Program-made: the position numbers and the translations under genes | Notes under the pieces: model-generated | Told to the model about the DNA's origin: nothing | The model's database searches: none | What the model saw: the letters and a program-made list of their open reading frames with translations, nothing else | Assembly (NCBI GenBank): GCA_043827405.1 | Contig: JBDRPD010000101.1 | Coordinates: forward strand, 1 to 31,430 | Source: Elusimicrobiota bacterium | Lineage (GTDB): Bacteria; Elusimicrobiota; Elusimicrobia; UBA1565 | Reading direction: 5' to 3' | DNA: 31,430 bases | In this document: in pieces, positions 3,531-23,116 of the stretch | Position numbering within the stretch: the stretch's first letter is position 1 | Layout of the letters: each line of letters starts with the position of its first letter

Positions 3531-3572
3531 GTCGTCCTATAGATGAAAACAGGTCAAATCTAAAGGCGAGAC

Positions 3573-3586
3573 TTGATAAATATCAA
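3573..3586. promoter_or_regulatory. Perfect FNR box TTGAT-AAAT-ATCAA
   Basis: Exact match to TTGAT-N4-ATCAA in an AT-rich gap upstream of 3496. It overlaps the stop codon of the HemN-like gene, and an FNR-type regulator is encoded in the cluster. Confidence 0.7.
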
Positions 3587-5085: not shown

Positions 5086-6707
5086 ACGTTCTCGGATTCC
5101 ATGGCCCGGCTGAACCATTTGGGCTTCGCCGCGGCGGGACGATAGTACATGCGCATCATCGAGGCGACGCGCTTGTCGGCGACCGCTTCCAGGCTGCGCA
5201 CCTGCGCGTCGGTGAAGCGGCGGTTGAAGTCGCGGTACTTGGCGCGGTTGCCGCGCAACAGCGCCGAGGTCAATTTGGGGCTGAACAGGTGCTTGCAGTA
5301 GACCAGCCGTTCCGTCCGGTCCTTGCTCAGGAAACGAATATAGCCGCTGTCGATGCGCACCTTGCCGGCGGCGGCAAGGTCGGCCAGCGCCCGCTGCAGG
5401 GCCGCAACGGCCAGGGGGTCCTGTCCGAAAACGTTCTTAAAGCCGGGGCGCGATACTCTGCTCTGCGTATGCAGGTGGCGGATAACGAAGCCGCGCATCT
5501 CTTCGTTGAGGCTCGACTCCAGGGAGTAGAAAGGCGGCAGGCCGTTCCAGTCGCGCGGCGCGCCCTGCTGGCGGTTAGACGACGGCTGCACGAAAGCGGG
5601 ATGACCGTACCAGGCCGCGCCGAAGGCATGGGACAACGCGCTCATGCCGATGCCGAGAACCGACGCGCCCCATTTGCGCGCCATGCGGCACTGCCGGGTG
5701 ATCGCGGTGAGGTATTCCGGCTCCTCGGGGTCGAGCGGCGCGGGCCGGTAGCCGCAGCGCTGCGCGAGCCGGTCGAGTTCTTCGCTCATGCGCCACTGCC
5801 GCTCCCGCAGGCCGTCCGCCGGCCGGCGTCCGAGCTCGGAAAAGGCCGTCTGGACGCGCGGATCGAAGGCGTAGACGCGGAGGTTGCGCGGATGGGCCTT
5901 CAGCATGCCGATAAAATCACGGAGAAAAGAGTCATCGGACTGCCCGTCGAGCCCGTACATCAGGTCGGCGGCGCTGATCATGTCGGCATGGCGGGTCAGC
6001 AGGGCGGCGCTTTGCCGCACATTGTCCTGGTTCTGGCCGACGCGATTGGCTTTGTGCAGAATGAGGTTGTCGAGGCTCTGCACGCCCAAAGTGACATGGT
6101 TGACGCCGAGCGAGCGCATGCACTCCAGCTTCTCGGGCGTCAACGTGGCGGGGGAGGCCTCCATGTAGATTTCGGCGTCCCGCTCCAAACGGAAGCTGTC
6201 GCGGATCAGCTGAAACAGCTCCCGCAGCAGGTCCGACGGCATTAACGACGGCGTCCCCCCGCCCAGATAGATGGAGTGGAAATCGACCTCGGCGAAGACA
6301 TCGCGCAGGGCTTCCATTTCGCGCTTGAGCATCAGGTTGTAGCGGCGGAACTCGCCGCGGCTGCTGGTCAGGCACATGGCGCAGAAGCAGAAGGCGCAGC
6401 GGCTGAGACAAAACGGCCAGTGGATGTAGAGGCCGATCTCCCGCGGGGCTTTCCCCTGCCGGATCAGGCGGACCGTTTTTCGCCAGTAGCCGCGCACGTC
6501 CTCCAGGCCGGCGGGATGGAAGTAGCTGCGGTCCAGGTAGGCGCCCCCGTCGGTGGGGTAGTACGCCTCGTGCTCCTCGTGGCAGACCGCGGTCAGGAAG
6601 CTGTACTTGCGCAGCTCCTCCGCGGATATCGCGCGCGCCGCCCCTTTACGACGGGGCGGCGTGCTCGCCGACGCTCCGCTTACGGCTCCGCGCGCCGCCG
6701 TTACCAC
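5052..6707 (-). CDS. HemN-like radical SAM enzyme, paralog 2
   Basis: Motifs GLYIHWPFCLSRCAFCFC, YLGGGTPS, TLGVQSLD and DLMYGLDGQS. GTG start with a GGAGG RBS, overlapping the upstream stop. Confidence 0.88.
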   Translation of the reverse strand: MVTAARGAVSGASASTPPRRKGAARAISAEELRKYSFLTAVCHEEHEAYYPTDGGAYLDRSYFHPAGLEDVRGYWRKTVRLIRQGKAPREIGLYIHWPFCLSRCAFCFCAMCLTSSRGEFRRYNLMLKREMEALRDVFAEVDFHSIYLGGGTPSLMPSDLLRELFQLIRDSFRLERDAEIYMEASPATLTPEKLECMRSLGVNHVTLGVQSLDNLILHKANRVGQNQDNVRQSAALLTRHADMISAADLMYGLDGQSDDSFLRDFIGMLKAHPRNLRVYAFDPRVQTAFSELGRRPADGLRERQWRMSEELDRLAQRCGYRPAPLDPEEPEYLTAITRQCRMARKWGASVLGIGMSALSHAFGAAWYGHPAFVQPSSNRQQGAPRDWNGLPPFYSLESSLNEEMRGFVIRHLHTQSRVSRPGFKNVFGQDPLAVAALQRALADLAAAGKVRIDSGYIRFLSKDRTERLVYCKHLFSPKLTSALLRGNRAKYRDFNRRFTDAQVRSLEAVADKRVASMMRMYYRPAAAKPKWFSRAMESENVCRLQRNGQPA

Positions 6708-8239
6708 CAGGCCTCCGCTTCGACGCCGATATTCGTAAACGGGCTGATTTCGACCCAGCGCCGCGAGCGCTTGCCGGTGCCTTCTTTGCCGCGGCGTCCG
6801 CCTTGGCCGACGATGCGCTCGCGCGGGATGAAGCCCGATCGCAGAAGCTGCTGCGCGACTTTTTCCAGCATGTCCGAGGGACGGCCCTGCCGCCGGCGCA
6901 AAAATTTATCGAAGTCCGCCCATAGCTTCGGGGTCTCCCGGATATAGCAGTAGGCTACGAACAGCCAGCTGGAACGCATCATGTCCTCGGCGCTGAACGA
7001 GTAGGAGCTGGCGACCAGCCCTTCGGCATCGGTCTTGATTTTGAACTCCGCGACGCGGTCGGCCAGCGGCGCGTTGGGCAGCATGACGAGATCGAACAGG
7101 GTAAAGTTTACGTCCGGGACGAACCGCAGCGCCCAGTCGAGCGAGCGCTTGAAGGACTCATAGCTGTCGCCGGGCAGGCCGAGGATGAACTCGAGGTCCA
7201 GCCGAATGTTCTTGAACCGGGCGATCTTGGCGATATTCTCTTCGCAGCGCGCGATATCGAAAGGCCGGTTGATGTTTTTGAGGGCTTCTTCACCGGTCGT
7301 CTGGATGCCGACCGCCACCGTGGCGCACGGGACTTTGCCCAGCTCCGCGATCAGCTCATCGTCGAAGTGCTCGGCTTTGAGCTCCATCAAAAAACGGTTC
7401 TCGTATTGCTGCAGTATCCGGAACACCTCTTGGCAGCGTTTCTTCTTGATGTTGAGAAAGGGGTCGGTGATGTAGATGACGCCGGCGAACTTCTCGCGGC
7501 GCAGCGTCTCCAGCTCGGCCCGCAGCCGCTGCAGGGAGAATTTCCGCATGCTGCGCCGGCCCGCATGGTAGTCGCAGTAGGAGCAGGACAGCGGGCAGCC
7601 GCGTGAGGACTCGACGCAGATCATGCCGCGGTCGCTGTTGCCGTGGACTTTGAGCGCGCCGGTCAGATAGGGCGAGGGGATGTCCTCCAGGTTGTCCGGG
7701 CCGCGCGACGGCGGCGCAACCACCACGCGTCCGTTCTCGCGATAGGCCAGACCCTCTATTCCCGTCAGCTCCCGTTGGGCCGCGAAGGCCAGCAGCAGCC
7801 GGCGAAAAGGCTCTTCCCCCTCGCCGCAGACGCAGATGTCCACCGCGGGGTTGCTGCGGAAAAACTCCTTGAGCAAAACGTCCTTGCGGGGAATCTCGGG
7901 GCCGCCCACCACGATCCGGACCTCGGGCATATCCTTCTTGAGCAGCTCGATGAGCCCGAGGGTGCGCGGGGCGTTCCACAGAAAGATGCTGAACGCCGCG
8001 ACGTCCGGCCGGCTTTCGCGCAGCGCGGCCAGCGCTTCCTGATCGGTCACCGCGTCGTGGAACTTGAGGTTGATCATCTCCGTGCCGCGGCGGATGCCGG
8101 GGTCCTGCTGGGCGTAGGCGCGCACGGTGGCCAGCCCCAGGGGCAGGTCCGCTCCCGTGCGGATATCGACGTAGCGGTCTTTCTCCGGTCCCAGGAGCTC
8201 GGTCCAGAATGTTTCGAGGTAGACGAAGGATACTCTCAC
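6701..8239 (-). CDS. Cobalamin-binding (class B) radical SAM enzyme, probable methyltransferase
   Basis: B12-binding domain (LPLGLATV, PDVAAFSIFLWN, IVVGGPE, GEGEEPF) followed by ESSRGCPLSCSYC and FILGLPGDS. GTGA overlap with the upstream gene. Confidence 0.9.
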   Translation of the reverse strand: MRVSFVYLETFWTELLGPEKDRYVDIRTGADLPLGLATVRAYAQQDPGIRRGTEMINLKFHDAVTDQEALAALRESRPDVAAFSIFLWNAPRTLGLIELLKKDMPEVRIVVGGPEIPRKDVLLKEFFRSNPAVDICVCGEGEEPFRRLLLAFAAQRELTGIEGLAYRENGRVVVAPPSRGPDNLEDIPSPYLTGALKVHGNSDRGMICVESSRGCPLSCSYCDYHAGRRSMRKFSLQRLRAELETLRREKFAGVIYITDPFLNIKKKRCQEVFRILQQYENRFLMELKAEHFDDELIAELGKVPCATVAVGIQTTGEEALKNINRPFDIARCEENIAKIARFKNIRLDLEFILGLPGDSYESFKRSLDWALRFVPDVNFTLFDLVMLPNAPLADRVAEFKIKTDAEGLVASSYSFSAEDMMRSSWLFVAYCYIRETPKLWADFDKFLRRRQGRPSDMLEKVAQQLLRSGFIPRERIVGQGGRRGKEGTGKRSRRWVEISPFTNIGVEAEAWW

Positions 8240-9639
8240 TTATCCTCGGCGGCGGTGAATTCGGGACGCGCCTCGCGGTTAAGGCGCGCGAATTCCTGGC
8301 GCATCTCGGTCTCGTCCTCCTCCTCCTCGTCGCTGTCGCCTTTGACCAGCTGCAGCCGCCGCTTATGGTGCAGGGCGTTGGCCATGCGGCCCGCGAAATT
8401 GAGAAATCCTTCAAAGCCCAGATAGGGCTCATCGACCAGGGCGTGGTGGAAGTAGGACGGGAAGCCGAGCTCCACGATGCAGAACTTCTCTATCGTATGC
8501 CAGCGGAAGATGCGCGAAACGTCGTTGGTCGTGGTGACGACGAGTTCCGTCGGATCGCCCAGGAAGCGGTTGACGTCCGGGTGGTAGATGTCGGGCTCGA
8601 AGAGGATGGTGTCGGCCATGCCGGTCGCCCTTTCGCTGACCGGGCGGTCGCGTGAGGTCAGAAAGCAGTCGCGTACCGTCATCCCCAGGTCCTCACAGGT
8701 TTCCATGAAGCCTTCCATGTGGTAGGGGTCGCCGATAAACGTCGCTTCCTTGTGCAGGAAGATGTAGGGCGCGATCCACTCCAGGCGGCTCAGGATGCGC
8801 CGCCGCTCTTCAGTGATCAGCTTCTTGGCGGCTTTTTCGCGGCCGGTGGCTGCGGCGAGCTGCCGGATCCAGCGCTCGGTGGCCTGCAGGCCGAACGGCA
8901 GGTCGCAGACCACCAGCTGGGCTCCCGTCTTCTTCGCCAGTTCTGCGGCGGCCTCGCGGCCATGGGGAAAGGAGAGTATGGTGCCGGCCGTCTGCACCCC
9001 CCGCGCGAGCTCATCGTACGGTTGGCAGCTGAACCAGGTCGAGACGAGCTTCAGCCCCAGCGCCTCGATCATGCGGCGCAGCTCTTTGAGGTTGCCCCGG
9101 TGGTCCCCTTCGTTGCGGTCCATCATATAGCCGACGATGGCGACGTTCTCCGGCTTGGGATCAATGCCCGGCAGCGGCATATGGCGCACCAAAGTCCGCA
9201 TGGCGATGGCGAAGCCGTCGAGCCAATCACCGACCAGAGAGGTCGGGGGGATCGAGATGGCCTCCTTCTGCATGAAGGTGCCGGCGCCGCGCATTAGGTG
9301 GTCGTAGTCGATCCCCGTCAGCGAGCAGCCGGGCAGGGCGGTCAGGAAGACGGCGCGGGAATTCTCCAGCATTTCGATCGCGTGCACTTTGCGCAGGATC
9401 ACGTCGTTGTGATCCTTGGTGACGCTTTGGGCGCAGATATTGGTGAAGCAGACCCGGTGGTTGCCGTTGATGTCGAGCAGCGTGCTGTTGAGGTCGTGGC
9501 GCCCGTGGATGAAGTGCGATTTGTAGAGCGCGCAGTCCGGGCCGTCGATAAGGATATAGGCGTCCGGTATGCCGTTGATGGCGAGATAGGCTCCCATCAT
9601 TGAGGGATAATTCAGCCGGTGTCCGCGTACCCTGCTCAT
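8236..9639 (-). CDS. Nitrogenase component 1-like oxidoreductase, beta/NifK-like subunit (HGRHD type), copy 2
   Basis: Motifs GAYLAINGIPDAYILIDGPDC, LPGCSLTGIDYD, GNLKELRRMIEALGL, LPFGLQATERW and ELGFPSYFHH...PYLGFEG. ATGA overlap and AAGGAG RBS. Confidence 0.85.
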   Translation of the reverse strand: MSRVRGHRLNYPSMMGAYLAINGIPDAYILIDGPDCALYKSHFIHGRHDLNSTLLDINGNHRVCFTNICAQSVTKDHNDVILRKVHAIEMLENSRAVFLTALPGCSLTGIDYDHLMRGAGTFMQKEAISIPPTSLVGDWLDGFAIAMRTLVRHMPLPGIDPKPENVAIVGYMMDRNEGDHRGNLKELRRMIEALGLKLVSTWFSCQPYDELARGVQTAGTILSFPHGREAAAELAKKTGAQLVVCDLPFGLQATERWIRQLAAATGREKAAKKLITEERRRILSRLEWIAPYIFLHKEATFIGDPYHMEGFMETCEDLGMTVRDCFLTSRDRPVSERATGMADTILFEPDIYHPDVNRFLGDPTELVVTTTNDVSRIFRWHTIEKFCIVELGFPSYFHHALVDEPYLGFEGFLNFAGRMANALHHKRRLQLVKGDSDEEEEDETEMRQEFARLNREARPEFTAAEDK

Positions 9640-12008
9640 GAGGCGGTCTCCTTAAGGCGTTTATAGAACGGCCACCGGCACAGGTTCTCAATGCGTTCAA
9701 TCGAACGCATCGCTCCCGGCACGCCCATCTCAAGCTCCAGGAGCGAGAACTGGGCGATGCCCCGGCGGGTCAGCCGCTTGTCGAAGAAAAATTCGGAATA
9801 GGCGATGTCGTAGCCTTCGGTTTCAAGGATGGCGTCCAGCTCCTCGTGCGTCGTGAACCATTTTACGCCGTGGCGGCCGGCGCCGCCGTCGAGCTGCGGG
9901 GCCTTGCCCGGGTGGTAGATGATATAGTCGACGGCGATCCCCATCTCCTTGATCATCATGGCCAGGGGGACGCCGCAGTGGCCCTTGGGGTCGGCCAAAC
10001 GGGCGACCTTCTCGGGATCGACGATAAAAGCGAGGCGCCGGCCCTTGAGGCGGGCCGCCCGCTGCTTCCACTTCGGCGCGATCTTCTCGACCGCGCTCGA
10101 CCAGGCGCTGTCGGCGGCGCGGGCGCTGCCGCCGGCGGCTTCGGCCACGGCCTTGAGCCAGGAGCGCGTGTTCGCCAGTCCGTACGGGGCGACCGGCATG
10201 ACGGAGTTGAGCTTGAGGTCGGAGAACAGCCGCTTGTAGGTGCCGAGGTAGTGGGTGTCCGGGTTGAATACATGCGTTCCGGCGCGGTTGAAGGAATCCA
10301 TTTCAGCGACGTTGAATCGCGGCAGGATGAAGAGGTTTATGTCGAGGCCGCAGTCGGCGAGCAGGGCGCGGGTTTCGTCGCGGCCTTTGCCGGCCGGATA
10401 ACCGATGATGTTGACGAGCTCCGGCCGCGGCTGGTGCGCCTTGAACTCAGCGGACGCCTTGATGCGGTCGAAGAATATCCTGAGCAGGTCGGTCTCCTGG
10501 CCGCCCGCGGGGTTGGTGTAGATTATCGGAATGTCGAACTTCTTTTCATACTTCTTCAAGATGCTGGCGGCGTCGTCGCCGATGACGGTCGGGATGCAGG
10601 TGCTGGAGACGACGACGGCCACTTTCCCCTTGGCGCTTTTGACCGCCAGATCGAGCGCCTCTTCAAGCTTGCCTTGGCCGCCCGAGACCACGTCGGTGTC
10701 GCGCAGATCGGTGGTCAGGCCCACGCAGCCTTCGCCGGAGTCCTTGACCCGTTCGCGGCGCTGCAGCCACTTGAAGTTGAACCAGGTCATATAGCCGTCG
10801 TCAAAGTGCGGCGTGGCGTAATGGCATTCGATATCTTCGTGCGAAACCCCGATGATCGGGGCCTCGAGGTTCGTTTGCTGGTCGTAGTTGCGGTTGGTTT
10901 CGCGGTCGGCGAAGAAGTTGCGCCACTGTTCCGGATCGCCCCACTGCCGGGCATGCGGCCCCTCGTTCCACAGGTTCTCCTTGGCCGTGGACCAGATGGA
11001 CAGGATGCGCTCGAGCCGGTCGTCGGGCCGGGCGTTCTTCATCCCCGCCGCGGCTCCGTCCGGCAAGCCGCCGCCGCGCGCTTTATTGACCGCCGCGGGA
11101 GTGGATTCATCGGCGATCCTCGGCGCTCGCGGCGCGGGGGGGCGCCGCGCGCCCTGAAAGTCGAGCCGGGACAGTTCGAGGAACTCGTCGTCGCTCAGCG
11201 GCGTCGGACACGGGGCCTCGGCGATGTCCAAATCATAGAGCGTGTCGGCCAGCTTGCGCAGGGCCTTGGAGAAGGGGGCGTCTTGGTCGTGCTTGAGCAC
11301 ACTGACGCGTTGAAATTCCGCTTTGCGCACGGCGGGATCGCGCGGCAGGAAGGCCAGCACCCGGCTGTCGATGAGCTCGCAGAAGCGGCGGACGGTCGAA
11401 TCCTTCTCTCCCTTATCCTTGGTGTTGGCGATGATGCCGCATAGCCCGATGCCGTTGGAGGCGTAGTTCTCGATGGCGCGCGTAATATTGTTGGCGGCGT
11501 AAAGCGCCATGAGCTCTTCCGACGCCACGATGCACACCTTCTCGGCGAAGCCCAGGCGCAGGGGGGCCGCGAAGCCGCCGCATACCACGTCGCCGAGGAC
11601 ATCGAAGAGCATGACGTCATAGCGGCCCTCATCCATGACTCCGCACTGCGCGAGCATCTCGATGGTGCGCGAAATGCCGCGGCCGGCGCAGCCGATGCCG
11701 GGTTCGGGGCCGCCGGATTCGACGCAGTCGACGCCGAAGTCGCCCGGCACGATGAGCTGCTCGCGCCGGGTCTGCATATCCATGAAGCCCGGAAGCTCGA
11801 CCGCCGTCTTGATGGGCTCGCCGCGCGTCAGGGAGATCGTCGAGTCATGTTTGGGATCGCAGCCGACCAGCAGCACCTTCTTGCCCTGCAGGGCGTAGGC
11901 CGCGGCCAGGTTGGAGGTGATGGTGGATTTTCCGATGCCGCCCTTGCCGAAGATGACGATCCTCTGCACGCGTTTTTTCCCGCGGCCGGGTTTCTTTTTC
12001 TTCGTCAT
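9636..12008 (-). CDS. Fusion of a NifH/BchL-like Fe protein and a NifD-like component 1 subunit, copy 2
   Basis: N-terminal half has GKGGIGKST, GCDPKHDST, ESGGPEPGIGCAGRG and DVLGDVVCGGFAAP. A Pro/Ala linker follows. C-terminal half has TDLRDTDVVSGG, STCIPTVIGDD, VNIIG and PYGLANTRSWL. Confidence 0.9.
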   Translation of the reverse strand: MTKKKKPGRGKKRVQRIVIFGKGGIGKSTITSNLAAAYALQGKKVLLVGCDPKHDSTISLTRGEPIKTAVELPGFMDMQTRREQLIVPGDFGVDCVESGGPEPGIGCAGRGISRTIEMLAQCGVMDEGRYDVMLFDVLGDVVCGGFAAPLRLGFAEKVCIVASEELMALYAANNITRAIENYASNGIGLCGIIANTKDKGEKDSTVRRFCELIDSRVLAFLPRDPAVRKAEFQRVSVLKHDQDAPFSKALRKLADTLYDLDIAEAPCPTPLSDDEFLELSRLDFQGARRPPAPRAPRIADESTPAAVNKARGGGLPDGAAAGMKNARPDDRLERILSIWSTAKENLWNEGPHARQWGDPEQWRNFFADRETNRNYDQQTNLEAPIIGVSHEDIECHYATPHFDDGYMTWFNFKWLQRRERVKDSGEGCVGLTTDLRDTDVVSGGQGKLEEALDLAVKSAKGKVAVVVSSTCIPTVIGDDAASILKKYEKKFDIPIIYTNPAGGQETDLLRIFFDRIKASAEFKAHQPRPELVNIIGYPAGKGRDETRALLADCGLDINLFILPRFNVAEMDSFNRAGTHVFNPDTHYLGTYKRLFSDLKLNSVMPVAPYGLANTRSWLKAVAEAAGGSARAADSAWSSAVEKIAPKWKQRAARLKGRRLAFIVDPEKVARLADPKGHCGVPLAMMIKEMGIAVDYIIYHPGKAPQLDGGAGRHGVKWFTTHEELDAILETEGYDIAYSEFFFDKRLTRRGIAQFSLLELEMGVPGAMRSIERIENLCRWPFYKRLKETAS

Positions 12009-12853
12009 TTCTTCCTGCGCCGGGCGCTCTTTTTGAACTGCGTGTACGAGAGCGCGTAAAATTCACGGTCCTCAAGGGGCGTCGGCAGCGGCAGCGCTTT
12101 ATGCTTGAGCCGCAGGGCCGTCGTCGCCAGGCGGGCGAGCGCGCGGGTGACCGGCGCCTTGGGCGCATGTTCGACCACGGTTTCCCGCTTGAACTCGGCT
12201 TCCCGCACCGCCGGGTCGCGCGGGACGTACTGCAGAATCCTGGTGTTGATCAGCTTGGCGAAGCGCTCCAGCGGCCGGCGGTCGACCTCGGCGTCGCGCA
12301 AATTGGCGATGAGGCCGGCCAGGCGGATGCCGTTGGGGCTGTAGTGCCGGACGGCCTTGGCGATATTGTTGGCGGCGTAGATCGACATCAGCTCCTCGGA
12401 GCAGACGATGAAGACTTTTTTGCCGAAGCCGGCGCGCAGCGGGGTCGCGAAGCCGCCGCAGACCACATCTCCCAGGATGTCGTAGACGCAGATGTCGTAG
12501 CCGCCGTTTTCCAGCAGCCGGGTTTCCTTGAAGGTCTCCAGCATCAGCGAGATGCCGCGGCCGGCGCAGCCCACCCCCGGCTCGGGGCCGCCGGCCTCTA
12601 CCAGATCGATTCCGAAGCGGCCGCGCAGGACCAGCTTGCCGCTGTCGGTTATGGATTCGTTGGCGGCGATCTTCTCCATGAACGTCCGCACGTATTCCGT
12701 GCTGCGTGCGGCGATCGCCAAAGTCGAATCGTGCTTGGGGTCGCAGCCGACATGGAGCACCTTTCTGCCCGAGAGACCGTACAGGGCGCTGAGGTTGGCG
12801 CAGATGGTCGATTTGCCGATGCCGCCTTTGCCGAAGAATACCAGGCTTTCCAT
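12005..12853 (-). CDS. Stand-alone NifH-like Fe protein (ATP-dependent reductase)
   Basis: Motifs GKGGIGKST, GCDPKHDST, EAGGPEPGVGCAGRG, DILGDVVCGGFATP and ELMSIYAANNI. Both [4Fe-4S] Cys are present; 282 aa. Confidence 0.92.
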   Translation of the reverse strand: MESLVFFGKGGIGKSTICANLSALYGLSGRKVLHVGCDPKHDSTLAIAARSTEYVRTFMEKIAANESITDSGKLVLRGRFGIDLVEAGGPEPGVGCAGRGISLMLETFKETRLLENGGYDICVYDILGDVVCGGFATPLRAGFGKKVFIVCSEELMSIYAANNIAKAVRHYSPNGIRLAGLIANLRDAEVDRRPLERFAKLINTRILQYVPRDPAVREAEFKRETVVEHAPKAPVTRALARLATTALRLKHKALPLPTPLEDREFYALSYTQFKKSARRRKK

Positions 12854-12854
12854 T

Positions 12855-14156
12855 TCAGCGCGCCTCCTCGAGGGCGCCGGTAGTCCAATGGGAGACGGCC
12901 TTGCGGCCGTTGAGCGCCTGGTTCATGCGGTCGGCGAAGGCGATAAAGCCGTTGCAGCCGAGATAGGGCTCGTCCTTCAGAAAGTGCGTCCAGACGGAGG
13001 GGAAGCCGAACTCCATCCAGGCGCCATCCGGTTTAAGCATGGACAGCGCGTCCGTGTTGCCGATGAATAGGTCGGTGTCGGCGGCCCGGTTCGCCCAGTC
13101 CGCCCGAAGCTCTGAGACATGAGGCTCGTAGTGGACGCCGGCTGCGGCCTGCCCGCCCGCGGGACGCCGGCCGGAGAGATAGGCCGCGGCCAAGCGCATT
13201 CCCAGATCCTCGCAGGCGCCGCGCAGCCCGTCCAGGAGATGCGGGTCGCCCTGGAAGACGATTTTCTTATGCAGGAAAGCGAAAGGGACCGCCCATTCCA
13301 GGCGCGGCGTGATGCGGTCGAGCTCGTTTTCAATGAAGGCTTCGGCCGCGGCTTTGCGGCCTGTCGCGGCCGCGACCTTGCGCAGCCAGCTTTGCGTGCC
13401 GCGGAGCCCGAACGGGAGCTCCGTGTCCACGAGCTTGGCCCGCAGGCGCTTGGCCAGCGTCGCCGCCGCCCGGCGTCCATGCGGCAGGGAAATAATGGTG
13501 CTCGCGCGCCGTACTTCCCGCAGGCGCTCATAAGAGACGCCGGAGGGCCAGATCGCGACCGGATTGAGGTCCAGCGCCGCGCACATGCGCTTGAGCTCGG
13601 CGAGATTCCCGCGCTGATCGCCTTCGCCCCGGTCCATGAAGTGGCCGATGATGGCGACGTCATTCTTGCGCCGGCGTCCGCCGGAGAGGTCCATGCCGGA
13701 GGCCAGTGTCTGCAGGACGGCTTCGTAGCCGTCGAGCCAGTTGCCCGACAGCGAGGTCCCCTTAATGACGAAGCCGGGTTTTTTGCTGCGGGCCGCCCGC
13801 AGCAGCCGGTCGTAGTCGGTGCCGGCGATCGTGCACATCGGCAATGCGGTTACCAGCAGCGCACCGCAGGCGTCGAGCGCGGCGGTCCGGCGGATCACGT
13901 CGCCGATCATCTCGGCGGAATCGGTGGCGATGGTGTTGGCGCTGATCCCGGCGTACTGGAAGCGGTGATAGCCGGTGCAGGAGAGGAGCGTCGAAGTCCA
14001 GTCGTGACGGCCGTGCACCTGCATGGCGCGATAGAACGAACAGCCCGGTCCGTCCAGGACAAGATAGACATCCGGCAGCGCGTTGACCGCCAGTACCACT
14101 CCTACATTGTGCGGGAAAGTCAGCCGGGGGCTGAAGTCCGTCTGTTTTTTAAGCAT
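12855..14156 (-). CDS. Nitrogenase component 1-like oxidoreductase, beta/NifK-like subunit (HGRHD type), copy 1
   Basis: Start set at ATG 14156 (MLKKQTDF, GGAGG RBS). Motifs LDGPGCSFY..HGRHD, LPMCTIAGTDYD, LPFGLRGT and EFGFPS...PYLG. Colinear with 8236-9639. Confidence 0.85.
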   Translation of the reverse strand: MLKKQTDFSPRLTFPHNVGVVLAVNALPDVYLVLDGPGCSFYRAMQVHGRHDWTSTLLSCTGYHRFQYAGISANTIATDSAEMIGDVIRRTAALDACGALLVTALPMCTIAGTDYDRLLRAARSKKPGFVIKGTSLSGNWLDGYEAVLQTLASGMDLSGGRRRKNDVAIIGHFMDRGEGDQRGNLAELKRMCAALDLNPVAIWPSGVSYERLREVRRASTIISLPHGRRAAATLAKRLRAKLVDTELPFGLRGTQSWLRKVAAATGRKAAAEAFIENELDRITPRLEWAVPFAFLHKKIVFQGDPHLLDGLRGACEDLGMRLAAAYLSGRRPAGGQAAAGVHYEPHVSELRADWANRAADTDLFIGNTDALSMLKPDGAWMEFGFPSVWTHFLKDEPYLGCNGFIAFADRMNQALNGRKAVSHWTTGALEEAR

Positions 14157-15873
14157 CGGTCCTCCCGGCGCGGCGCAGATGCTTGCGGTAGCGGGCATAG
14201 AAGGGCAGGCGGCAGATGTCGAGCAGCCGTTCGAGCGAACGGAGCGCTCCGTCCATGCCCGCTTCGAACGTCCGCATGGAGAACTGCGGCTTCCCGGCGC
14301 GGGTGAGCCGGTGATCAAAGAAAATGTCCGAATATGCGGCGCTGAAATCTCCATTCGCCAGCGCTTGTTCGAGCCCCTGCGGTGCGCTGAAGAAGCGCAG
14401 CCGCGGCGGCCGCTGGAAGCCCGGCAGCGCCTTGAGGCGCCGCGCATTCTTCGGCTCGCGCCCCTGCGGCGCGAAGACGAGAAACTCCGCGCCGAAACCC
14501 ATTTCCGCGATCATGCGCAGGACCGGCACACCCGTCTGAAAGCCCGGCGCCAGCAGGAATCCCAGGCTCGCCTCATCAGCGACGAAGGCGAGGCGGTGTC
14601 CGCGCGCGCGCCGCGTCAGCTCGTCCCAGCGCGCTTTGCGCCGGCGCCACTCCCGCCGCGACCAAGCCGCGGCGGCCGGCGCCTTGCCGTAGGGCGCGGT
14701 GACCGCGCGCAGGTAGCGGCGCGTGCCCTCGACGCCGAACGGCGCCGGCGCGTAGATCGTTTCCAGCGGCAGGCGGGTGAGGGTCCGTTGTACGGTCGGG
14801 ATGGCCCGCAGATATTCCGGCAGGACTTGGCAAGCGGCGGCGGGATAGCGGTGCAGCGTCGGCAGATGCACTTCCGGGAAAATGCGCGCATTAACGCGGA
14901 TGCCGGCCGCCGCCAGCAGCGGGGCCAGCTCTTCGCGGAAAAAGCGCGGCGGACAGTCCAGCAGGTTGACGGCCGCGGGGTCGGGCTTGACGCGCCGGAA
15001 GGCGGCCGTGCCGCGCACTTCGCGGAAAATCTCTTCAAACAAGCTGAAGCTCTTCTGCATGCGGAAATTGATCGAGTTCATGACTACGGGGCAGCCGCCC
15101 GCGTCGCGGCACTTCGCGGCCATCGCCTGCTCATCGTCCCCGATGACGGTCGGAGTGCAGGACCAGCTGATCATAATCAGGTCGGGCCGGGTCCGCTCTT
15201 TAAGCTTATGCAGAAACGCGTTCAGCTTGCCGGCGGTGCCGAGGATCACGTCCTTTTCCTGTAGGTCGCTCGTCCACTGCTCATAGACGGTGTCCGGCAG
15301 CGGGGAGTCCTGGGAGTGAGGATGGACCGGGGGGTAGTTCAAAAAGGTCATGCCCCGGAAGGTCACGTCGGGCGGCATGAAGGTGCAGTCGAAGTCGCCG
15401 TGAACGAAGTATAGAACACGCCCGACAAAGCCGGTGGCATGCGCCCAGAAGAACATGCGGCTGAACTCGCGCTCGCAGAAGAAGCGCCGCCATTGACCGG
15501 GGTTGCCGCCGAGGCGGTCGGAGACGCATTGGGCGTCGGGAGCCTCGCCTTCTCCGCCGTCGCCGTTTTTCTTATTTTGCTTGTCCTGCGGCAGGGCCGC
15601 GATGAGCCGCTGCGGATCGCAGCGCTTGAGGCGGCGCGCCATCTGCCGCAGCAGGTCCGTCAGCTCCCGGCCGGCGGTCTTGCCCTCGTAGCAGATGTCG
15701 AAAGCGCCGGCGCGGACGAAGCAGTTCTTCGCCGGCGCCGGCCGGAGGATGACGACGGCGTTCTTGTGGCCGCGGGCCACGGCCAAACGCACCCGGCCGG
15801 CTTCCTGCCGGCTGGCGCTGCGTAGGCGCCAGGCGCCGTCGAGACCGCATAGGTCGGCGAGCGCCCGGCTCAT
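14149..15873 (-). CDS. NifD-like component 1 subunit with an unassigned N-terminal domain of about 110 aa
   Basis: Start set at ATG 15873 (GAGGAG RBS, ATGA overlap). Motifs GNPGQWRRFF, HGDFDC, TSDLQEKDVILG, SCTPTVIGDD and APFGVEGT. Homologous to the C-terminal halves of both fusions. Confidence 0.82.
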   Translation of the reverse strand: MSRALADLCGLDGAWRLRSASRQEAGRVRLAVARGHKNAVVILRPAPAKNCFVRAGAFDICYEGKTAGRELTDLLRQMARRLKRCDPQRLIAALPQDKQNKKNGDGGEGEAPDAQCVSDRLGGNPGQWRRFFCEREFSRMFFWAHATGFVGRVLYFVHGDFDCTFMPPDVTFRGMTFLNYPPVHPHSQDSPLPDTVYEQWTSDLQEKDVILGTAGKLNAFLHKLKERTRPDLIMISWSCTPTVIGDDEQAMAAKCRDAGGCPVVMNSINFRMQKSFSLFEEIFREVRGTAAFRRVKPDPAAVNLLDCPPRFFREELAPLLAAAGIRVNARIFPEVHLPTLHRYPAAACQVLPEYLRAIPTVQRTLTRLPLETIYAPAPFGVEGTRRYLRAVTAPYGKAPAAAAWSRREWRRRKARWDELTRRARGHRLAFVADEASLGFLLAPGFQTGVPVLRMIAEMGFGAEFLVFAPQGREPKNARRLKALPGFQRPPRLRFFSAPQGLEQALANGDFSAAYSDIFFDHRLTRAGKPQFSMRTFEAGMDGALRSLERLLDICRLPFYARYRKHLRRAGRTDA

Positions 15874-18251
15874 TTCTTTCTCCTCGCCGCGGCGCGCGGC
15901 TCGGCGCACCTTTTGTACAGCTCCCAGCGGCAGATGCGCTCAAGGCGCTGCAGCGATCGCCGCGCCCCGCGCAGGCCCATTTCGACGTCCAGCAGGGAAA
16001 ACTGCGGCACGCCGGCCCGGGTCAGCCGCCGGTCGAAGAAGTACTCGGAGTATACCGCGTCCGGCCCGTTCTCCTGCAGCAGGCGGTGCAGCTCTTTGCG
16101 CTCGCGGAACCAGCGAATCCGGTGCCGGGAGCCGCTGTCTATTTTTGCGCGCGGCAGTTTGGGCGCCGTGCCTTCCACATAAGCGAGGTAGTCGATGCCG
16201 AATCCCATTTCCTTGAGCATGCCCACCAGCGGTACGCCCGCCGCGCCTGTCGGCCCCGCCAAGCGGTGGACTTTGTCGGCATCCACGACGAATCCCAGCC
16301 GGCGCTGCGCGATCCGTTCGCGGCCGGCCGTCCAGTCTTTCGCGATCAGGGAAGCCGCCAGCGACCAGGCCTCCGCGGCGGACGCTTCCTTGCCGCCGCA
16401 TTTCTGCGCGACTTCCATAAGCCAGCGGCGGGTGCCGCGCAGGCCGTACGGAGCGGTCGGCGTGATGCCGGGCAGGTCGACGTCGGCGAAGAGCTTGCTG
16501 TAGGTCGTCTGGAAGGCCGGGTCGGGATAGAAGACGTTGAGGCCGGCGCGGCGGAGCTTCACGGCGTCTTCGACGCTGAAGCGCGGCAGCAGGCAGACGT
16601 TGACGTCGATGCCGGCGTTCTCGAGCAGAAACTTCAGCTCGTCGCGCGGCCGGCCGGGCGGGAAACCGATCAGGTTGACGCGCCGCGGCTGCGGCTTGCA
16701 GCCGCGGAACTCCTTGCTCGCTTTGACGCGCTGGAAAAGGACCTCCATGGGGTCTTCGTAATGGTCGGCGGAAGGGTTGTTGTAGATGATCGGGATATTC
16801 GTCTTCTTGCGGTAGCGCGCAACGAGCCCCGGCGTATCGTCGCCGATCACGGTCGGGACGCAGGTGGAGGTCACGATCACGGCCTGCTTGCCCTCCAGGT
16901 TGTCCATCGCCATGTCGAGAGCTTCCTTCAGCTTGCCGCTCCCGCCCGCCATCACGTCGGTGTCCACGATGTCGGTCGAGATGCACAGGTAGTCGTCGCT
17001 GCGCCGCTTCTGCGTCTTCCAGCGCGCCGCCCAGGGGACATTGAAGGGGACCATATGGCCGTCGTCGTAGTACGGCGAGGCGTAGTTGCACTCGAGGTCC
17101 TCGTGCGAGACGCCGACGATGGGCGCATCCAGGTACATCTGCTGCTCCTGGCTGCGCCAGGTCTCGCGATCGGCGAAGAACTGCCGCCACTGCTCGGGAT
17201 CGCCCCAAACCTTGCCGTGCGGGCCCTCGGCGTGCTTCTTGTCCTTGGCTTTGGCCCACACCGACATAATTTTTTCCAGCCGATCATCCTCTTTCGCCGG
17301 CGGGGGAAGCTTTTGCCGTCCGGATGCCGCCAGCGGAGCGGCCGCGGCGCGGTTGACCGCGATGTCGGGCGTGTCGTCGTAGGCCTGGGGCGCGCGTCCG
17401 GGCGCATGCTCGCGGCGCTCGCCCTTGAACTCGCGGCGCGAGAGGTCGAGGAACTCCCGGTCGGACAGCGGAACCGGCATCTTGGCCTGCGCGACGTCCA
17501 GCTCCCAGAGGATGTCCGCGAGTTCGCCGATCTTGCGCGAGAAGGCGGCGCGGGGGTTGTAGTCGACGACGGTTCGCCGCTCGTACTCGGCTTTGCGCAC
17601 CTCAAGGTCGCGCGGCAGGTAGGTCAGGATGTTGCTGTGGATGAGCTGCGTGAAGCGCACCAGCGTCCCCGCGCTCTCCTCTTCGTCGCTGTGATCTTTA
17701 AGGTTCGCGATGATGCCGCACAGGCCGATGCCGTTGGAGGCATAGTTCACGATCGCCCGGCAGATATTGTTGCAGGCGTAAAGCGCCATCATCTCTTCGG
17801 ACGCGACGATGACCACCTTGTCGGCGAAGCCGAGCTTGAGCGGCGCCGCGAAGCCGCCGCAGACCACGTCGCCGAGCACGTCGAAAATCATCACGTCGTA
17901 GGCGTCGTCCGACATCATGCCGCAGCTCTCCATCATCTCGATGGTGCGCGAGATGCCGCGGCCGGCGCAGCCGATGCCGGGCTCGGGTCCGCCGGACTCG
18001 ATGCAGTCGACTCCCAGCCGCCCTCTAACGACCAGCTGTTCGCGTTTGGCGGACAGGTCCAGGAATCCCGACAGCTCGACCGCGGTCTTGATGGGTTTGC
18101 CGTCGGTCAGGTTGATCGTCGTGTCGTGCTTGGGATCGCAGCCGACGAGCAGGACCTTCTTGCCCTGCGCGGAGTAGGCCGCCGCGAGGTTTGAACAAGC
18201 GGTAGATTTTCCGATGCCGCCTTTGCCGAATACGACAAGCTTCATGCTCAT
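15870..18251 (-). CDS. Fusion of a NifH/BchL-like Fe protein and a NifD-like component 1 subunit, copy 1
   Basis: Motifs GKGGIGKST, GCDPKHDTT, ESGGPEPGIGCAGRG and DVLGDVVCGGFAAP, then a linker, then WGDPEQWRQFFADRE, HEDLEC, STDIVDTDVMAGG and STCVPTVIGDD. The start could be 18245. Confidence 0.9.
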   Translation of the reverse strand: MSMKLVVFGKGGIGKSTACSNLAAAYSAQGKKVLLVGCDPKHDTTINLTDGKPIKTAVELSGFLDLSAKREQLVVRGRLGVDCIESGGPEPGIGCAGRGISRTIEMMESCGMMSDDAYDVMIFDVLGDVVCGGFAAPLKLGFADKVVIVASEEMMALYACNNICRAIVNYASNGIGLCGIIANLKDHSDEEESAGTLVRFTQLIHSNILTYLPRDLEVRKAEYERRTVVDYNPRAAFSRKIGELADILWELDVAQAKMPVPLSDREFLDLSRREFKGERREHAPGRAPQAYDDTPDIAVNRAAAAPLAASGRQKLPPPAKEDDRLEKIMSVWAKAKDKKHAEGPHGKVWGDPEQWRQFFADRETWRSQEQQMYLDAPIVGVSHEDLECNYASPYYDDGHMVPFNVPWAARWKTQKRRSDDYLCISTDIVDTDVMAGGSGKLKEALDMAMDNLEGKQAVIVTSTCVPTVIGDDTPGLVARYRKKTNIPIIYNNPSADHYEDPMEVLFQRVKASKEFRGCKPQPRRVNLIGFPPGRPRDELKFLLENAGIDVNVCLLPRFSVEDAVKLRRAGLNVFYPDPAFQTTYSKLFADVDLPGITPTAPYGLRGTRRWLMEVAQKCGGKEASAAEAWSLAASLIAKDWTAGRERIAQRRLGFVVDADKVHRLAGPTGAAGVPLVGMLKEMGFGIDYLAYVEGTAPKLPRAKIDSGSRHRIRWFRERKELHRLLQENGPDAVYSEYFFDRRLTRAGVPQFSLLDVEMGLRGARRSLQRLERICRWELYKRCAEPRAAARRKK

Positions 18252-18429: not shown

Positions 18430-18493
18430 GTGATCTAGAGCAGAAAATTATATGATAGATGTCAGAGTTTCGCGGAAAATCTTCTCCTATACT
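18430..18493 (+). promoter_or_regulatory. Putative rightward promoter: degenerate Crp/Fnr boxes at 18430-18443 and 18452-18465, plus -10 TATACT at 18488-18493
   Basis: GTGAT-ctag-AGCAG (within the CRP-like aTGTGATCTAGAgcaga) and ATGAT-agat-GTCAG are 22 bp apart. They centre at -63.5 and -41.5 relative to TATACT. Confidence 0.5.
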
Positions 18494-18502
18494 ATCAGAG
18501 TT

Positions 18503-19885
18503 ATGCCGGTAAAGGCAGCTAACAGCCGTAAGGCCCCCGCCGATCTGAATTTGGATCCAAAGCTGCAGGAAAGCGACGAGACGTTCTGGCAGCAGCAGGA
18601 GGGCCGCATGACCCGGCAGATCGGGCAGCCCTGCTGCACGCTCTCCGGCATGACGCATCTGCTCATCGAGATGCCCGGCAATTTCGCCGTCGTGCTGCAC
18701 TCCGAGCGCGACTGCGCGAACTGTTTTCTGAATACCCACGGGGTGTCCGGACGAAACTTCTACTCGGTCGGCATCACGCAGCCGCAGTTTTCGTCGGGGC
18801 GGATGGGCGAACCGCTGCGCCGCTGCCTCGAGCTGGTGATCCGCCACCGCAAGCCCGACGCGGTTTTCGTTTTGGGCAGCTGCCTCGTTGAGATGGTTTA
18901 CGATACGTTCGATATGGTCTGCGCGGAAACGGCGAAAACGACCGGGACGCCGGTCATCGCGCTGCGTACGAGCGGGCTCCGGCACGGTTCCCAGGCGGCG
19001 ATGGTGGATTGGCTCTACAGCACGCTCGCAGGGCTGGCCGCCAGCAGGACGAGCGCGGTTCCCGAAGGGAAAAAGGGCTTGTCCAAGCGCTTGAACCTGA
19101 TCGGGATGCCCCATCTCAACAGCGAGCCGGTCCGCCGCGAGCTGACGGGTTTTCTGCACGCAGCCGGGCTCGCGATTAACGGCGTCTATCCTTACGAGGC
19201 GGGCTTTGAGGATTGGCTGAAGGTGGGGCGCGCCTCGGCGAATGTCGTCGTCGACAGCTCGCTGTATCCCAAGCTGCTGGCGGCGCTGGGCGCATTGAAG
19301 ATGACGTCGGTTGAGGTGCCGCTGCCGGTGGGAATCGAATCGACCTCGCGCTTTTTTGCCGTGATCGGCAAGCAGTTCGGAGTCGCCAAAAGTCTGAGCG
19401 GCGCCTGCGCGGCGGCGGTGGAGACGGCACAGCGGCGCCTGGCGGCGTTTCGCAAGCGCTTTGGCGGGCTGAAGGTCGCCGTGGGCCTGCGCATGGTCAA
19501 CAACTACCGGGTGGATCAGCTCGCATACGACGGGCTGGGCGATATCGCCACCTTCGTCGAGGCGGGCTTCGAGGTCCGGCTGTTTATTCAGGGGCCGGGG
19601 GATCGGAAATCACGCCGGCATTTCGCCGACCGTCTCAAGCAGCTCGGCTGCGCGCTGCCGTTCGAGATATTCCCCGATCCCTACGATCTGCCGCCGCTGC
19701 TGCAGGCCGACCGGCCGGACGTGGCGTACCTGGCGGATCATGCCCGCTGGGAGACGACTAAAATCGGCATCCCGCTTATTCAGAGCCGTTCGCTCGAGCC
19801 GCTCTACAGCGGGGCGGTGCGCAATTTCGACTATTTCGACAAGGTTTTGACGCAGATCGGACGGAGCCGGAGGGGGAGGAGGTAG
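18503..19885 (+). CDS. Nitrogenase component 1-like alpha subunit (NifD/NifE/BchN/CfbD-like) with three cluster Cys
   Basis: Motifs QPCCTLSG, LHSERDCAN, LGSCLVEMVYD, LNLIG and LPVGIESTSRF. Start set at ATG 18503 because the ORF-track start at 18452 lies inside the predicted promoter. Confidence 0.82.
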   Translation: MPVKAANSRKAPADLNLDPKLQESDETFWQQQEGRMTRQIGQPCCTLSGMTHLLIEMPGNFAVVLHSERDCANCFLNTHGVSGRNFYSVGITQPQFSSGRMGEPLRRCLELVIRHRKPDAVFVLGSCLVEMVYDTFDMVCAETAKTTGTPVIALRTSGLRHGSQAAMVDWLYSTLAGLAASRTSAVPEGKKGLSKRLNLIGMPHLNSEPVRRELTGFLHAAGLAINGVYPYEAGFEDWLKVGRASANVVVDSSLYPKLLAALGALKMTSVEVPLPVGIESTSRFFAVIGKQFGVAKSLSGACAAAVETAQRRLAAFRKRFGGLKVAVGLRMVNNYRVDQLAYDGLGDIATFVEAGFEVRLFIQGPGDRKSRRHFADRLKQLGCALPFEIFPDPYDLPPLLQADRPDVAYLADHARWETTKIGIPLIQSRSLEPLYSGAVRNFDYFDKVLTQIGRSRRGRR

Positions 19886-19889
19886 AAAG

Positions 19890-20990
19890 ATGAGATGCGG
19901 GTTGATGATCGTTTTGTGCGGCGGGTTGCTGGCGCCGGCGGCGGCGGAGAAGCCGGCCGGCCTGACGGACGCGCAGCAGGCGCGCTACGTGACGGCGGGT
20001 GAGTTCCTCATCGCGGACAAGTTCGAAGCGGAGCGTTTTGCGCGCATCCTCGCCGATCTGCCGGCGCTTAAGAAAGAGGATTCCGCGCTGTACCGGGATA
20101 TCCGCTCGGCGCTCAAGAAGCGGACGGGGGACAAGGCCAAGCCGCTGCTGGATTACTTCGAGCGCTACGTCGACGATCCCTGTATTCGCGACGAGGTCGG
20201 CCGCTCGCATGACGATGAAAACTTCGACTACTTCTACCAGCGGACCGTCGCGGGGGAGATCGAGCTGAAGGCGGTATGCAAGGACATCAAAAAGGGACGC
20301 AACGAGGAAGCGGCGAAGCCGCTCGATGCGATGATCAAGCGTGTTCCGATGAACACGGTCGCTTACCTGCACCGGGCGATCGTGCGCCTGCGGTCCGGCG
20401 ATGCGGCGGGAGCGGGCGGCGATTATCGCGAGGCGCTGAAGACCCCGGTGGGGAAGACGGAGGCGTCCGCCAGTTGTCTGTGCTGCAAGTCCTTGGCTCC
20501 CGACCTGGCGCAGTTGCAGGAGCGCCGCGCTCTGAGCGAGGCCGCGAAGAAAGCGGGGACTTCGCTGTTTATCGACGGCAATGCCGCCGGCGCGCTCGCC
20601 AAGTTCGATGAGGCGCTGCGGCATGATCCGGGCGACCCGGAAGCTTTCGTGAGCCGCGCGGTCGCGCGGCAGAAGACCGGCGGCGAGCCGGCGCTGGCGG
20701 TCGCGGATTACCACGCGGCGTCCAAGTTCGCGGTCGCGGCGGGACGCTGGGACCTCGCGGCGGACGCGCTGCTCAGCAGCGCGCAGGTGAGCGGCGTCGA
20801 TGAAAAGGCGGTGCTGCCGGTAACCGTCGCCAGGATCGAGGAGATGATCGTGATGACAACTCCCGAATGGCAGGAGAAGCTGGCTAAGGAGCTGCAAACT
20901 CTGCGGCCGCGCTTGCAGAAAATCCTGCCGCCGCCCGCCGAGAAGAAGCCCGCGCCGGGGATAGAACCGGAGGGAAAAAAGGCGCCGTGA
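19890..20990 (+). CDS. TPR-repeat protein with a predicted N-terminal signal peptide
   Basis: Signal-like N-terminus MRCGLMIVLCGGLLAPAAA|EK. TPR patterns AYLHRAIVRLRSGDAAGAGGDYREAL and ALAKFDEALRHDPGDPEAFVSRAVA. GGAGGAGG RBS. Confidence 0.75.
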   Translation: MRCGLMIVLCGGLLAPAAAEKPAGLTDAQQARYVTAGEFLIADKFEAERFARILADLPALKKEDSALYRDIRSALKKRTGDKAKPLLDYFERYVDDPCIRDEVGRSHDDENFDYFYQRTVAGEIELKAVCKDIKKGRNEEAAKPLDAMIKRVPMNTVAYLHRAIVRLRSGDAAGAGGDYREALKTPVGKTEASASCLCCKSLAPDLAQLQERRALSEAAKKAGTSLFIDGNAAGALAKFDEALRHDPGDPEAFVSRAVARQKTGGEPALAVADYHAASKFAVAAGRWDLAADALLSSAQVSGVDEKAVLPVTVARIEEMIVMTTPEWQEKLAKELQTLRPRLQKILPPPAEKKPAPGIEPEGKKAP

Positions 20991-22345: not shown

Positions 22346-23116
22346 ATGAATCCGGGATATCATCGATCGACCATGAAACGGAAGGGCTTGGGACTCGCCG
22401 ATCCGCGGGTCTACTGCAAGGGCTGTCCGGTGCTGCAGACCGGATTTTTCGGCGCCCTCAACAGCGAGTCCAAAGCGGCCCTGACCTGCATGATGGAGTA
22501 CGGGCATTATATCCCGCGCCAGATCCTCTACCAGGAGGGAAATCCGGCGACCCGAATTTACGCGGTCAAGACCGGCTATGTGAAGACGTACCGGACGCAT
22601 CCGCTGGGCAAGCACCAGGTGATTCAGATCGCGAAGGGCGGAGATGTTCTGAACCTTGAGAGCGTGCACGGCCGGCAGTGCACCGTTACGGCGGAGGTCC
22701 TGACCAATTCCGAGATATGCTTTCTCGAGGTGCGTCAGCTGATGGAGCGCGCCAAGCGCAGCGGCGCGCTCGCGATGGAGATCATTCAAATCCTGGCGGC
22801 GGCGATCGTGGATTCGCAGCAGCGCATTCTTGATTTCGGCACGCTGGACGCCAAGGCGCGCTTCGCCGGCTTTCTGCTGGATATGCTGCCGGAAGAGGCC
22901 GTCGCCGCGGCGGCGAGCGGCGGCCCGCGGCGCGGCGGGAAGGAGGCGGGTTTTCGCCTGCCTTTGACGCGCCATGAGATCGCGGATTTGATCGGCGTGC
23001 GCCTGGAGACGATTTCCCGGCTGTTCCAGCTGTTCAAGGAAAAGAAGATTATCGCGGCGGATTGCCGGCAGGTGCGGGTGCTGAATGCCGGCAAGCTGGC
23101 CGAATTGGCGAAGTAG
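22346..23116 (+). CDS. Crp/Fnr family transcriptional regulator, FNR-like
   Basis: N-terminal CKGC, a cNMP-like domain (LYQEGNPATRIYAVKTGYVK), AEVLTNSEICF, and HTH LTRHEIADLIGVRLETISR. The start could be 22373. Confidence 0.9.
   Translation: MNPGYHRSTMKRKGLGLADPRVYCKGCPVLQTGFFGALNSESKAALTCMMEYGHYIPRQILYQEGNPATRIYAVKTGYVKTYRTHPLGKHQVIQIAKGGDVLNLESVHGRQCTVTAEVLTNSEICFLEVRQLMERAKRSGALAMEIIQILAAAIVDSQQRILDFGTLDAKARFAGFLLDMLPEEAVAAAASGGPRRGGKEAGFRLPLTRHEIADLIGVRLETISRLFQLFKEKKIIAADCRQVRVLNAGKLAELAK

Follow-up and report, generated by a model that had tools for sequence, protein, structure and literature searches.

In the nitrogenase family a reductase normally dissociates from its catalytic partner once it has passed on an electron. 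These Fe proteins (hereafter H) are dimers with one bridging cluster according to the accessible text of a review (PMC13474568). Another source (PMC12022308), in its accessible part, treats the reason for a catalytic part with two halves as an open question and describes DPOR as working one half at a time with a free donor. Here we describe two genes, HD1 and HD2, of an uncultured groundwater bacterium of the Elusimicrobiota (assembly GCA_043827405.1), each of which encodes an H domain and an alpha-type catalytic domain (D) in one reading frame. They lie in contig JBDRPD010000101.1, of which the whole stretch analysed (positions 1 to 31,430) is called the window below. We consider it somewhat probable that the tethered H domains pair with each other, giving one dimer per two halves made of D and its beta-type partner (K), and that this dimer serves the halves in turn, an arrangement referred to as the leashed-dimer mechanism. 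A natural, conserved tether with a fixed 1:2 stoichiometry would be a ready test of the need for full dissociation and of the alternation of the halves.

Group VI, the group of nitrogen-fixation-like (NflHDK) systems to which our comparisons lead, has been known since 2020 and is still uncharacterised according to the accessible text of the same review, in which the words 'fused' and 'fusion' are absent. The text of the Group VI preprint (bioRxiv 10.1101/765248), as far as it is accessible, describes no H-D fusion, though its figure S6 may show it. Dos Santos et al. (2012, PMC3464626) mention, for Archaea, Firmicutes and Deltaproteobacteria, nifH fused to nifE with a nifN-like gene behind the fusion; as in the window, H and an alpha-type subunit share one open reading frame (ORF) with a beta-type gene next to it. 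In the part of that paper available, the mention is one sentence with data not shown, the fused sequences were filtered from the tree, and Elusimicrobiota are unnamed. A fused nifH/nifE gene is also labelled in a table within the available part of PMC4153887. The literature that we found on the Group VI fusion amounts to the 2012 sentence and this table label, and the supplements of the preprint may show it; the fusions in PMC13753814, PMC8399215, PMC9447857 and PMC3512248 were, in the text available, of other kinds and were set aside.

Two uninterrupted H-D fusion genes

By their sequences, HD1 and HD2 (Table 1) were confirmed as genuine, uninterrupted fusions of a NifH-like and a NifD-like protein. 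The preliminary description had read the ORFs of 790 and 793 aa as a complete H, a Pro/Ala-rich linker of about 50 aa and a D-like domain, free of internal stops, and each part of this stood. Pfam places Fer4_NifH at residues 15-279 of HD2 and 3-270 of HD1 and Oxidored_nitro in both, and the linkers, whose ends were set by our own domain boundaries, measure 45-48 aa. Pro and Ala make up 38-40% of the linkers versus 16% of the whole proteins, and the GC content at third codon positions (GC3) is 0.84 (HD2) and 0.79 (HD1) in the linkers versus 0.86-0.88 in the domains. Translation gave no internal stop in either frame, and a contig of run X2, from a separate study, bridges the HD1 linker (window 17194-17778) with 21 substitutions and no gaps; among the X2 pieces listed, none bridges the HD2 linker. 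Run X1 covers the stretch in a single contig, but as this DNA may come from that run the match is not independent. The RNA run compared with the window gave two short partial matches, and a metagenome scan with the HD1 protein (P0002) gave one partial locus.

The AlphaFold2 model of HD2 (36-row alignment, mean pLDDT 82.5) consists of two confidently folded parts separated by a stretch predicted as disordered (residues 293-328, pLDDT below 50), with a second low-confidence stretch after the linker, at 342-351. Among the aligned fusions the linker has a median length of about 42 aa, the shortest being 26-29 aa, and its sequence is unconserved (column identity 0.25, versus 0.71 and 0.52 for the domains).

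When the best 8000 candidates of a database search were scored, 77 of the 120 matches listed covered 97% or more of the query in a single alignment, two of them being the window's own proteins, and both Pfam families were present in 117 of the 120. Because so many matches span the query, the fusion is not an artefact; the 75 further full-length homologues among the matches listed weigh heavily against an error of assembly. The double occurrence of the fusion had also been taken as an argument against an artefact. The fusion is real, but this argument does not hold, since HD1 and HD2 are sister paralogs (SH-aLRT 98, from a quick tree with 125 H domains; identity 68% between H domains and 50% between D domains) and so represent one event, not two. 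The sequences thus indicate that the fusion arose once in this line and was then duplicated.

Distribution of the fusion among relatives

A search of 401 genomes of the phylum for H (E up to 1e-30, at most six candidates scored per genome) found a match in 50, of which 38, including this one, belong to the same class; the 12 from other classes were left out, eight of them serving as outgroups. The fusion is present in 33 of these 38 genomes, which answers the question of its conservation in homologous loci raised by the preliminary description. Their H genes comprise 53 fused, 39 free and three cut by the edge of a locus or contig. The fused genes take two forms, 23 being plain H-D and 30 carrying a spacer of 133-175 aa (H-X-D). 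A K-like gene adjoins 49 of the 53 fusions, downstream in 42 cases and upstream in seven; the other four comprise HD1, a fusion whose K lies 1.6 kb off and two that sit at contig ends.

In 16 of the 33 fusion-bearing genomes the search turned up no free H, and ten have a single H. Five genomes (95-100% complete, from five genera of one family) gave, on a renewed search, exactly one H match, which is fused, one D and one K. Genomes with one fused gene and K offer a two-gene system to express and to screen for the Group VI substrate.

Other arrangements were also seen. Some members of fused clades (G150, G188, G340 and G302) have H, D and K as separate genes, and the relative L062 has X-D, K and H together with no fusion nearby. 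In a wider genome scan (the best 80 of 602 hits, mostly ordinary nifH), at least seven of 82 H ORFs had an in-frame D-type match; these loci may overlap the surveyed genomes and were kept out of the counts above. Genome G277 encodes, at L044:12023-14017 (-), a Group VI H with a similar Pro/Ala linker joined to a radical SAM domain, not to D, next to separate D and K genes; this fusion ties a Group VI reductase to radical SAM partners. Eight proteins of 1010-1100 aa (P0107, P0108, P0110-P0114 and P0116) combine H, an NTPase of NB-ARC/nSTAND3 type and a component-1 domain in one chain, and the four tested fall outside Group VI in trees. At L029:8403-10325 (-) and L035:13812-15659 (-), a K-like protein carries an additional C-terminal partial K repeat of about 170 aa; the gene order there is D-K-H, and the free H is nested among fused H, likely, from its position in the tree, through a secondary split. 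In the H-X-D proteins at L004:8585-11227 (+) and L007:8131-10785 (-), D scored from its middle onward and its Cys were not seen, and these D parts are possibly divergent or cluster-free. A Myxococcota ORF at L101:2465-5881 (+), of unverified start and frame, has two H domains in tandem ahead of a D-type domain; if true, a whole Fe-protein dimer would be supplied within one chain. A profile of the 30 H-X-D spacers against all fetched loci found one new ORF, a D gene. A small domain common to D and radical SAM proteins was considered and rejected, the spacer profile having matched D only and the X domain of the window having matched none of its radical SAM proteins.

The tethered H domains probably pair with each other

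Ten ATPase and cluster positions, among twelve H positions checked, are invariant in all 53 fused H domains. The features used to recognise Group VI H (Walker A, the switch regions, Cys97 and Cys132, numbered as in Av NifH) are kept, and the H fold matches that of an Fe protein at Z 37.5. A degenerate pseudo-ATPase, acting as one half of a heterodimer, was rejected, the 53 domains being intact. The docking residue equivalent to Arg100 is present in 22 of 23 plain H-D proteins, none of the 30 H-X-D proteins and 38 of 39 free H; its loss in the H-X-D form is largely that of one family, and so represents few independent events.

Since the fused H domains keep all the ATPase and cluster residues checked, they must dimerise, and since no free H was found in 16 genomes, it is most likely that they can do so with each other. 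A dimer of a fused and a free H, suggested in the preliminary description, is thus not required. Such a dimer, in which the tethered H would recruit free H into a heterodimeric Fe protein with both docking sites filled, would account for the free H directly upstream of HD2, whose gene overlaps that of HD2 (ATGA), and for the presence of free H in 16 of the 17 fusion-bearing genomes of the window's two families, f1 and f3. We nevertheless hold it to be decidedly unlikely, in view of the genomes that have fusions only, of L062, where H stands with X-D and K, and of the free H of the window itself, which is 48-51% identical to the fused domains and clusters with the H of X-D-K modules (quick tree); nor was any complementary loss of residues seen between fused and free H. 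A heterodimer of the H domains of HD1 and HD2, also suggested earlier, is possible in this genome, HD1 being without a K gene of its own.

The D domain, its K partner and the cluster

In structure comparison the second part of HD2, from about residue 330, aligns to the N-terminal regions of BchN, AnfD, NifD and NifE. Its best fold match is MarD (Z 19.6, rmsd 4.5, 354 residues aligned), followed by NifE (18.3) and NifD (16.4), and no solved chain among those listed matches both halves of the fusion. As alpha chains lead both the sequence and the fold matches, the model points to a domain of alpha (D/E) type, and 'D-like' is a fair name for it.

K2 was modelled with a mean pLDDT of 92, its nearest fold being BchB 1-414 (Z 36.6, rmsd 3.0, 405 aligned). 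That the D-like domain pairs with K, as had been proposed, is borne out by the adjoining K genes and by a model of D (residues 330-790) with K2, which scored 0.86 against 0.00 for the best of three controls; the mark applied to such scores is reached by 116 of 157 solved pairs and by 2 of 215 mismatched pairs. At least 87% of contacts were common to the runs, partner pLDDT was 88 or higher, and Cys395 touches Cys36 of K. The modelled pair may pass through its likeness to solved alpha-beta pairs, and says nothing on the specificity of paralogs.

HD2 Cys395 and Cys471 are invariant in 36 aligned fusions, and Ala367 stands where most have Cys. In rows of more than 100 bits and 300 aa, the equivalents of D Cys88 and Cys154 are present in 90 of 92, the two misses being rows cut short, and that of Cys62 in 19 of 92, both window fusions having Ala and then Asp there. 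The equivalent of K Cys95 is kept in 89 of 92 K rows; a second K Cys, in a shifted position, occurs in 51 of 92. Because three Cys are near-invariant, the data are consistent with a single [4Fe-4S] cluster whose fourth ligand varies. Compensation of the missing first D Cys by the second K Cys was rejected, K1 having the second Cys though its D has all three.

A single-chain counterpart of CfbCD was also weighed, in which a D homodimer or an HD1-HD2 dimer would hold a cluster on two plus two Cys, with both H domains on the two-fold axis of a stable complex. In the accessible text of PMC13474568, each half of CfbD contributes its Cys88 and Cys154 equivalents to the cluster, and CfbCD forms a stable complex of 1:1 composition; in the fused D these same two Cys are the invariant ones, and the genome has five D-type genes versus four of K type. 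We regard this arrangement as improbable, given how regularly K adjoins the fusions and keeps its Cys, the congruence of the D and K trees and the D-K model, which occupies the same domain-I surface. The trees (FastTree, without family f5) agree in broad outline, and of the genome's K genes K2 alone falls in the clade that goes with H-D fusions of this type; for this reason HD1, to judge by the tree, probably shares K2.

A Group VI reductase, almost certainly not a nitrogenase

On sequence, HD1 and HD2 belong to the Group VI (NflHDK) systems of Elusimicrobiota, a known family that the preliminary description had not recognised, nor had it noted the 2012 mention of fusions of this kind. In quick IQ-TREE trees, which gave long-branch warnings and were built from sequences other than the reference alignment of the Group VI paper and Group V, the H domains of the window form one clade with P0009 of GWA2_69_24, separate from nif H and from other H of Group IV type. 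P0009 is 55% identical over 98% of the query, the named homologues are Elusimicrobia, and GWA2_69_24 is named in the accessible part of the Group VI preprint.

The fused H domains score 275 and 269 bits versus a nifH cut-off of 394, and 274 and 267 versus 402 for CfbC; the window proteins are likewise far under the DPOR cut-offs (BchL 202 versus 345, BchB 47.5 versus 490). The genome, which is 97.97% complete, has no match to nifB (TIGR01290). The Cys of MarD, which we take to be the equivalent of FeMo-co Cys275, aligns to Thr585 of the fusion, so that the FeMo-co Cys is absent, and HD2 with K2 lacks the six-Cys P-cluster set, having at most four of the six (Cys395, Cys471, K Cys36 and a K Cys shifted by two). 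Pairwise alignments ended short of the position of alpha-His442; the conserved C-terminal columns of D include no His. The HD1 and HD2 systems almost certainly fix no nitrogen. A true nitrogenase is the reading that source names invite, some homologues being called nitrogenase iron protein; together with the assembly artefact rejected above, it is an explanation of almost negligible probability, given the H scores and the absence of nifB and of the FeMo-co Cys. Annotation and nifH surveys will meet these proteins as 'nitrogenase iron protein' or 'AAA ATPase', and they should not be expected to fix nitrogen.

As for the substrate, a tetrapyrrole is the published guess for Group VI, made from gene context according to the accessible text; we find it conceivable, though short of probable. 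The genome has no match to the CbiX chelatase, and the hemB and hemC domains found elsewhere in it neither prove nor contradict such a substrate.

The leashed-dimer mechanism and its weak points

In the mechanism that we favour, each gene would yield one chain made of an Fe-protein subunit, a disordered leash of about 45-50 aa and the alpha-type D of a Group VI reductase. D would pair with a K-like beta subunit (for HD2 and K2 as synteny and the model suggest, for HD1 and K2 presumptively), and a [4Fe-4S] cluster would sit at the D-K interface on D Cys395, D Cys471, K Cys36 and a variable fourth ligand. The H domains of two H-D-K units would form a cluster-bridged dimer, so that one Fe-protein dimer would be available per two catalytic halves; its dimerisation is argued from Fe-protein chemistry and the genomes with a single H, and its geometry relative to the two D-K halves is conjectural. 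The dimer would dock, pass one electron, hydrolyse ATP, undock on its leash and be re-reduced, serving the halves in turn. The tether would keep the reductase with its own module in paralog-rich genomes, and the dedication of each reductase to its catalytic module, put forward in the preliminary description, fits the congruent D and K trees. What the enzyme reduces, at the expense of ATP, would be an organic compound and not N2, and the neighbouring radical SAM enzymes would act in the same pathway.

A further step is speculative and rather unlikely: the tether may hard-wire half-of-sites working in an (H-D-K)2 complex, with one Fe-protein dimer for two active sites and two genes in many genomes. 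As HD1 and HD2 would share K2, they could also meet in one mixed complex; its Fe protein would be a heterodimer and its two active sites would differ, which might allow two reductions in succession.

Several points weigh against the leashed-dimer mechanism. A tetramer may be wider than the shortest aligned linkers can span; no K gene adjoins HD1, and by sequence both window fusions lack the first alpha Cys, which bears on the identity of the fourth ligand. Among the 16 fusion-only genomes, 14 have the H-X-D form and only G054 and G274 the plain form, free H accompanies nearly every fusion-bearing genome of the window's own two families, and the surveyed genomes are incomplete and related. The evidence for intact chains is that of the genes, and the evidence on the substrate is gene context.

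If the linker were too short for one D2K2 tetramer, the H domains could pair between tetramers, giving rings or filaments. The beta-type chains matched by K2 all come from alpha2beta2 proteins, and the shortest linkers would suit such pairing; the median linker and the further low-confidence stretch at 342-351 speak against it, and we think it unlikely. The fusion might also be a device for co-expression, where a cut in the linker or an internal start would release a separate D and the enzyme would work like DPOR. In-frame ATG or GTG codons do occur near the start of D (codons 323; 329 and 331), and separate H, D and K genes exist inside fused clades. We give this reading little credence: no conserved cut site is visible, because the linker sequence is unconserved, and an excess of H would be expected if it were cut free, whereas the fusion fixes a 1:1 ratio. 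The leashed-dimer mechanism thus stands as our preferred reading of the two genes.

Organisation of the locus

The minus-strand genes run in the order HD1, X-D', K1, free H, HD2, K2 and the gene for a B12-binding radical SAM protein, with stops and starts that overlap or abut throughout (Table 1). X-D' has an additional N-terminal domain of about 120-130 aa. In all, six radical SAM genes lie at 3-8239, some of B12-binding or HemN-like type. The exact FNR-type box and the Crp/FNR-family regulator with N-terminal Cys suggest, from sequence features, oxygen or redox control of the locus.

Table 1. Features of the 31,430-nucleotide window, with positions and strands
Feature	Positions	Strand	Length (aa)	Remarks
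HD1, NflH::NflD fusion (P0002)	15870..18251	-	793	First gene of the minus-strand operon; no adjoining K-like gene
HD1 Fe-protein domain	17442..18245	-		Walker A, switch I, both cluster Cys and switch II all intact
HD1 linker	17283..17426	-	48	Residues 276-323; 38% Pro+Ala
HD2, NflH::NflD fusion (P0001)	9636..12008	-	790	H 15-279, D from ~330
HD2 linker	11022..11156	-	45	Residues 285-329; 40% Pro+Ala
X-D', stand-alone D-like	14149..15873	-	574	ATG overlaps HD1 stop; all three alpha-type Cys
K1, K-like	12855..14156	-	433	Length from likely start; synteny and tree pair it with X-D'
Free NflH	12005..12853	-	282	48-51% identical to fused H domains
K2, K-like	8236..9639	-	467	ATGA overlap with HD2; Cys36 invariant; predicted partner of HD2 D
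B12-binding radical SAM protein	6701..8239	-		Start overlaps K2 stop
Two HemN-like radical SAM proteins	5052-6707; 3583-5118	-		Under every curated cut-off
Three paralogous radical SAM proteins	2285-3496; 1030-2325; 3-1049	-		3-1049 cut by contig end
FNR-type box, exact	3573..3586	.		Upstream of the cluster of three radical SAM genes; 0.02 expected by chance
Divergent module	18452..22333	+		D3 18452-19885, TPR protein 19890-20990, K3 20987-22333
Crp/FNR-family regulator	22346..23116	+		Cys residues at N-terminus

All three H domains of the genome lie in the window. The genome's nine component-1 domains (five D-type, four K-type) include two on another contig, where an extra D-K pair without H is followed by a HemN-like radical SAM gene (G000:C74, L070:7763-10643). 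D3 and K3 diverge from the other modules (22-27% identity); they have, by motif reading, apparently five P-cluster-type Cys, lie on either side of the TPR gene and lack an H of their own. After the regulator gene, window 23502-30445 (+) holds a CoA-transferase-like gene, two more ORFs, and a histidine kinase with a response regulator.

Comparison with known systems

The fused systems of the window resemble Group VI, as described in the accessible parts of the preprint and review (10.1101/765248; PMC13474568), in the H clade shared with P0009, the multiple H, D and K copies, the adjacent B12-binding and HemN-like radical SAM genes, the absence of nifB and the reduced Cys set. A Bacillota fusion (L162) lies outside the Group VI clade, which suggests that the Bacillota and Group VI fusions had separate origins. 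With NifHDK, NifEN and MarHDK the similarity is in the folds, with the Z values given above, and the contrast is in the six-Cys P-cluster set, the FeMo-co Cys and nifB, which the system of the window lacks.

DPOR (BchLNB/ChlLNB, Group V) is alike in the fold of K2, which is nearest BchB, in a single interface cluster and in having no NifB; it differs in that BchL is a free dimer and BchB has Asp where K has Cys, and K is without the C-terminal domain of BchB. CfbCD (Group IV-B) has the same two invariant D Cys and, in the text available, is already a non-dissociating complex of reductase and catalytic part; it is homomeric and unfused, whereas the window fusions have a K partner and an H under the CfbC cut-off. 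The H-D architecture itself is not new, and is common in a known, uncharacterised enzyme group; what is new here is its prevalence, the genomes with fusions only, the single origin of HD1 and HD2, and an HD1 that stands without K.

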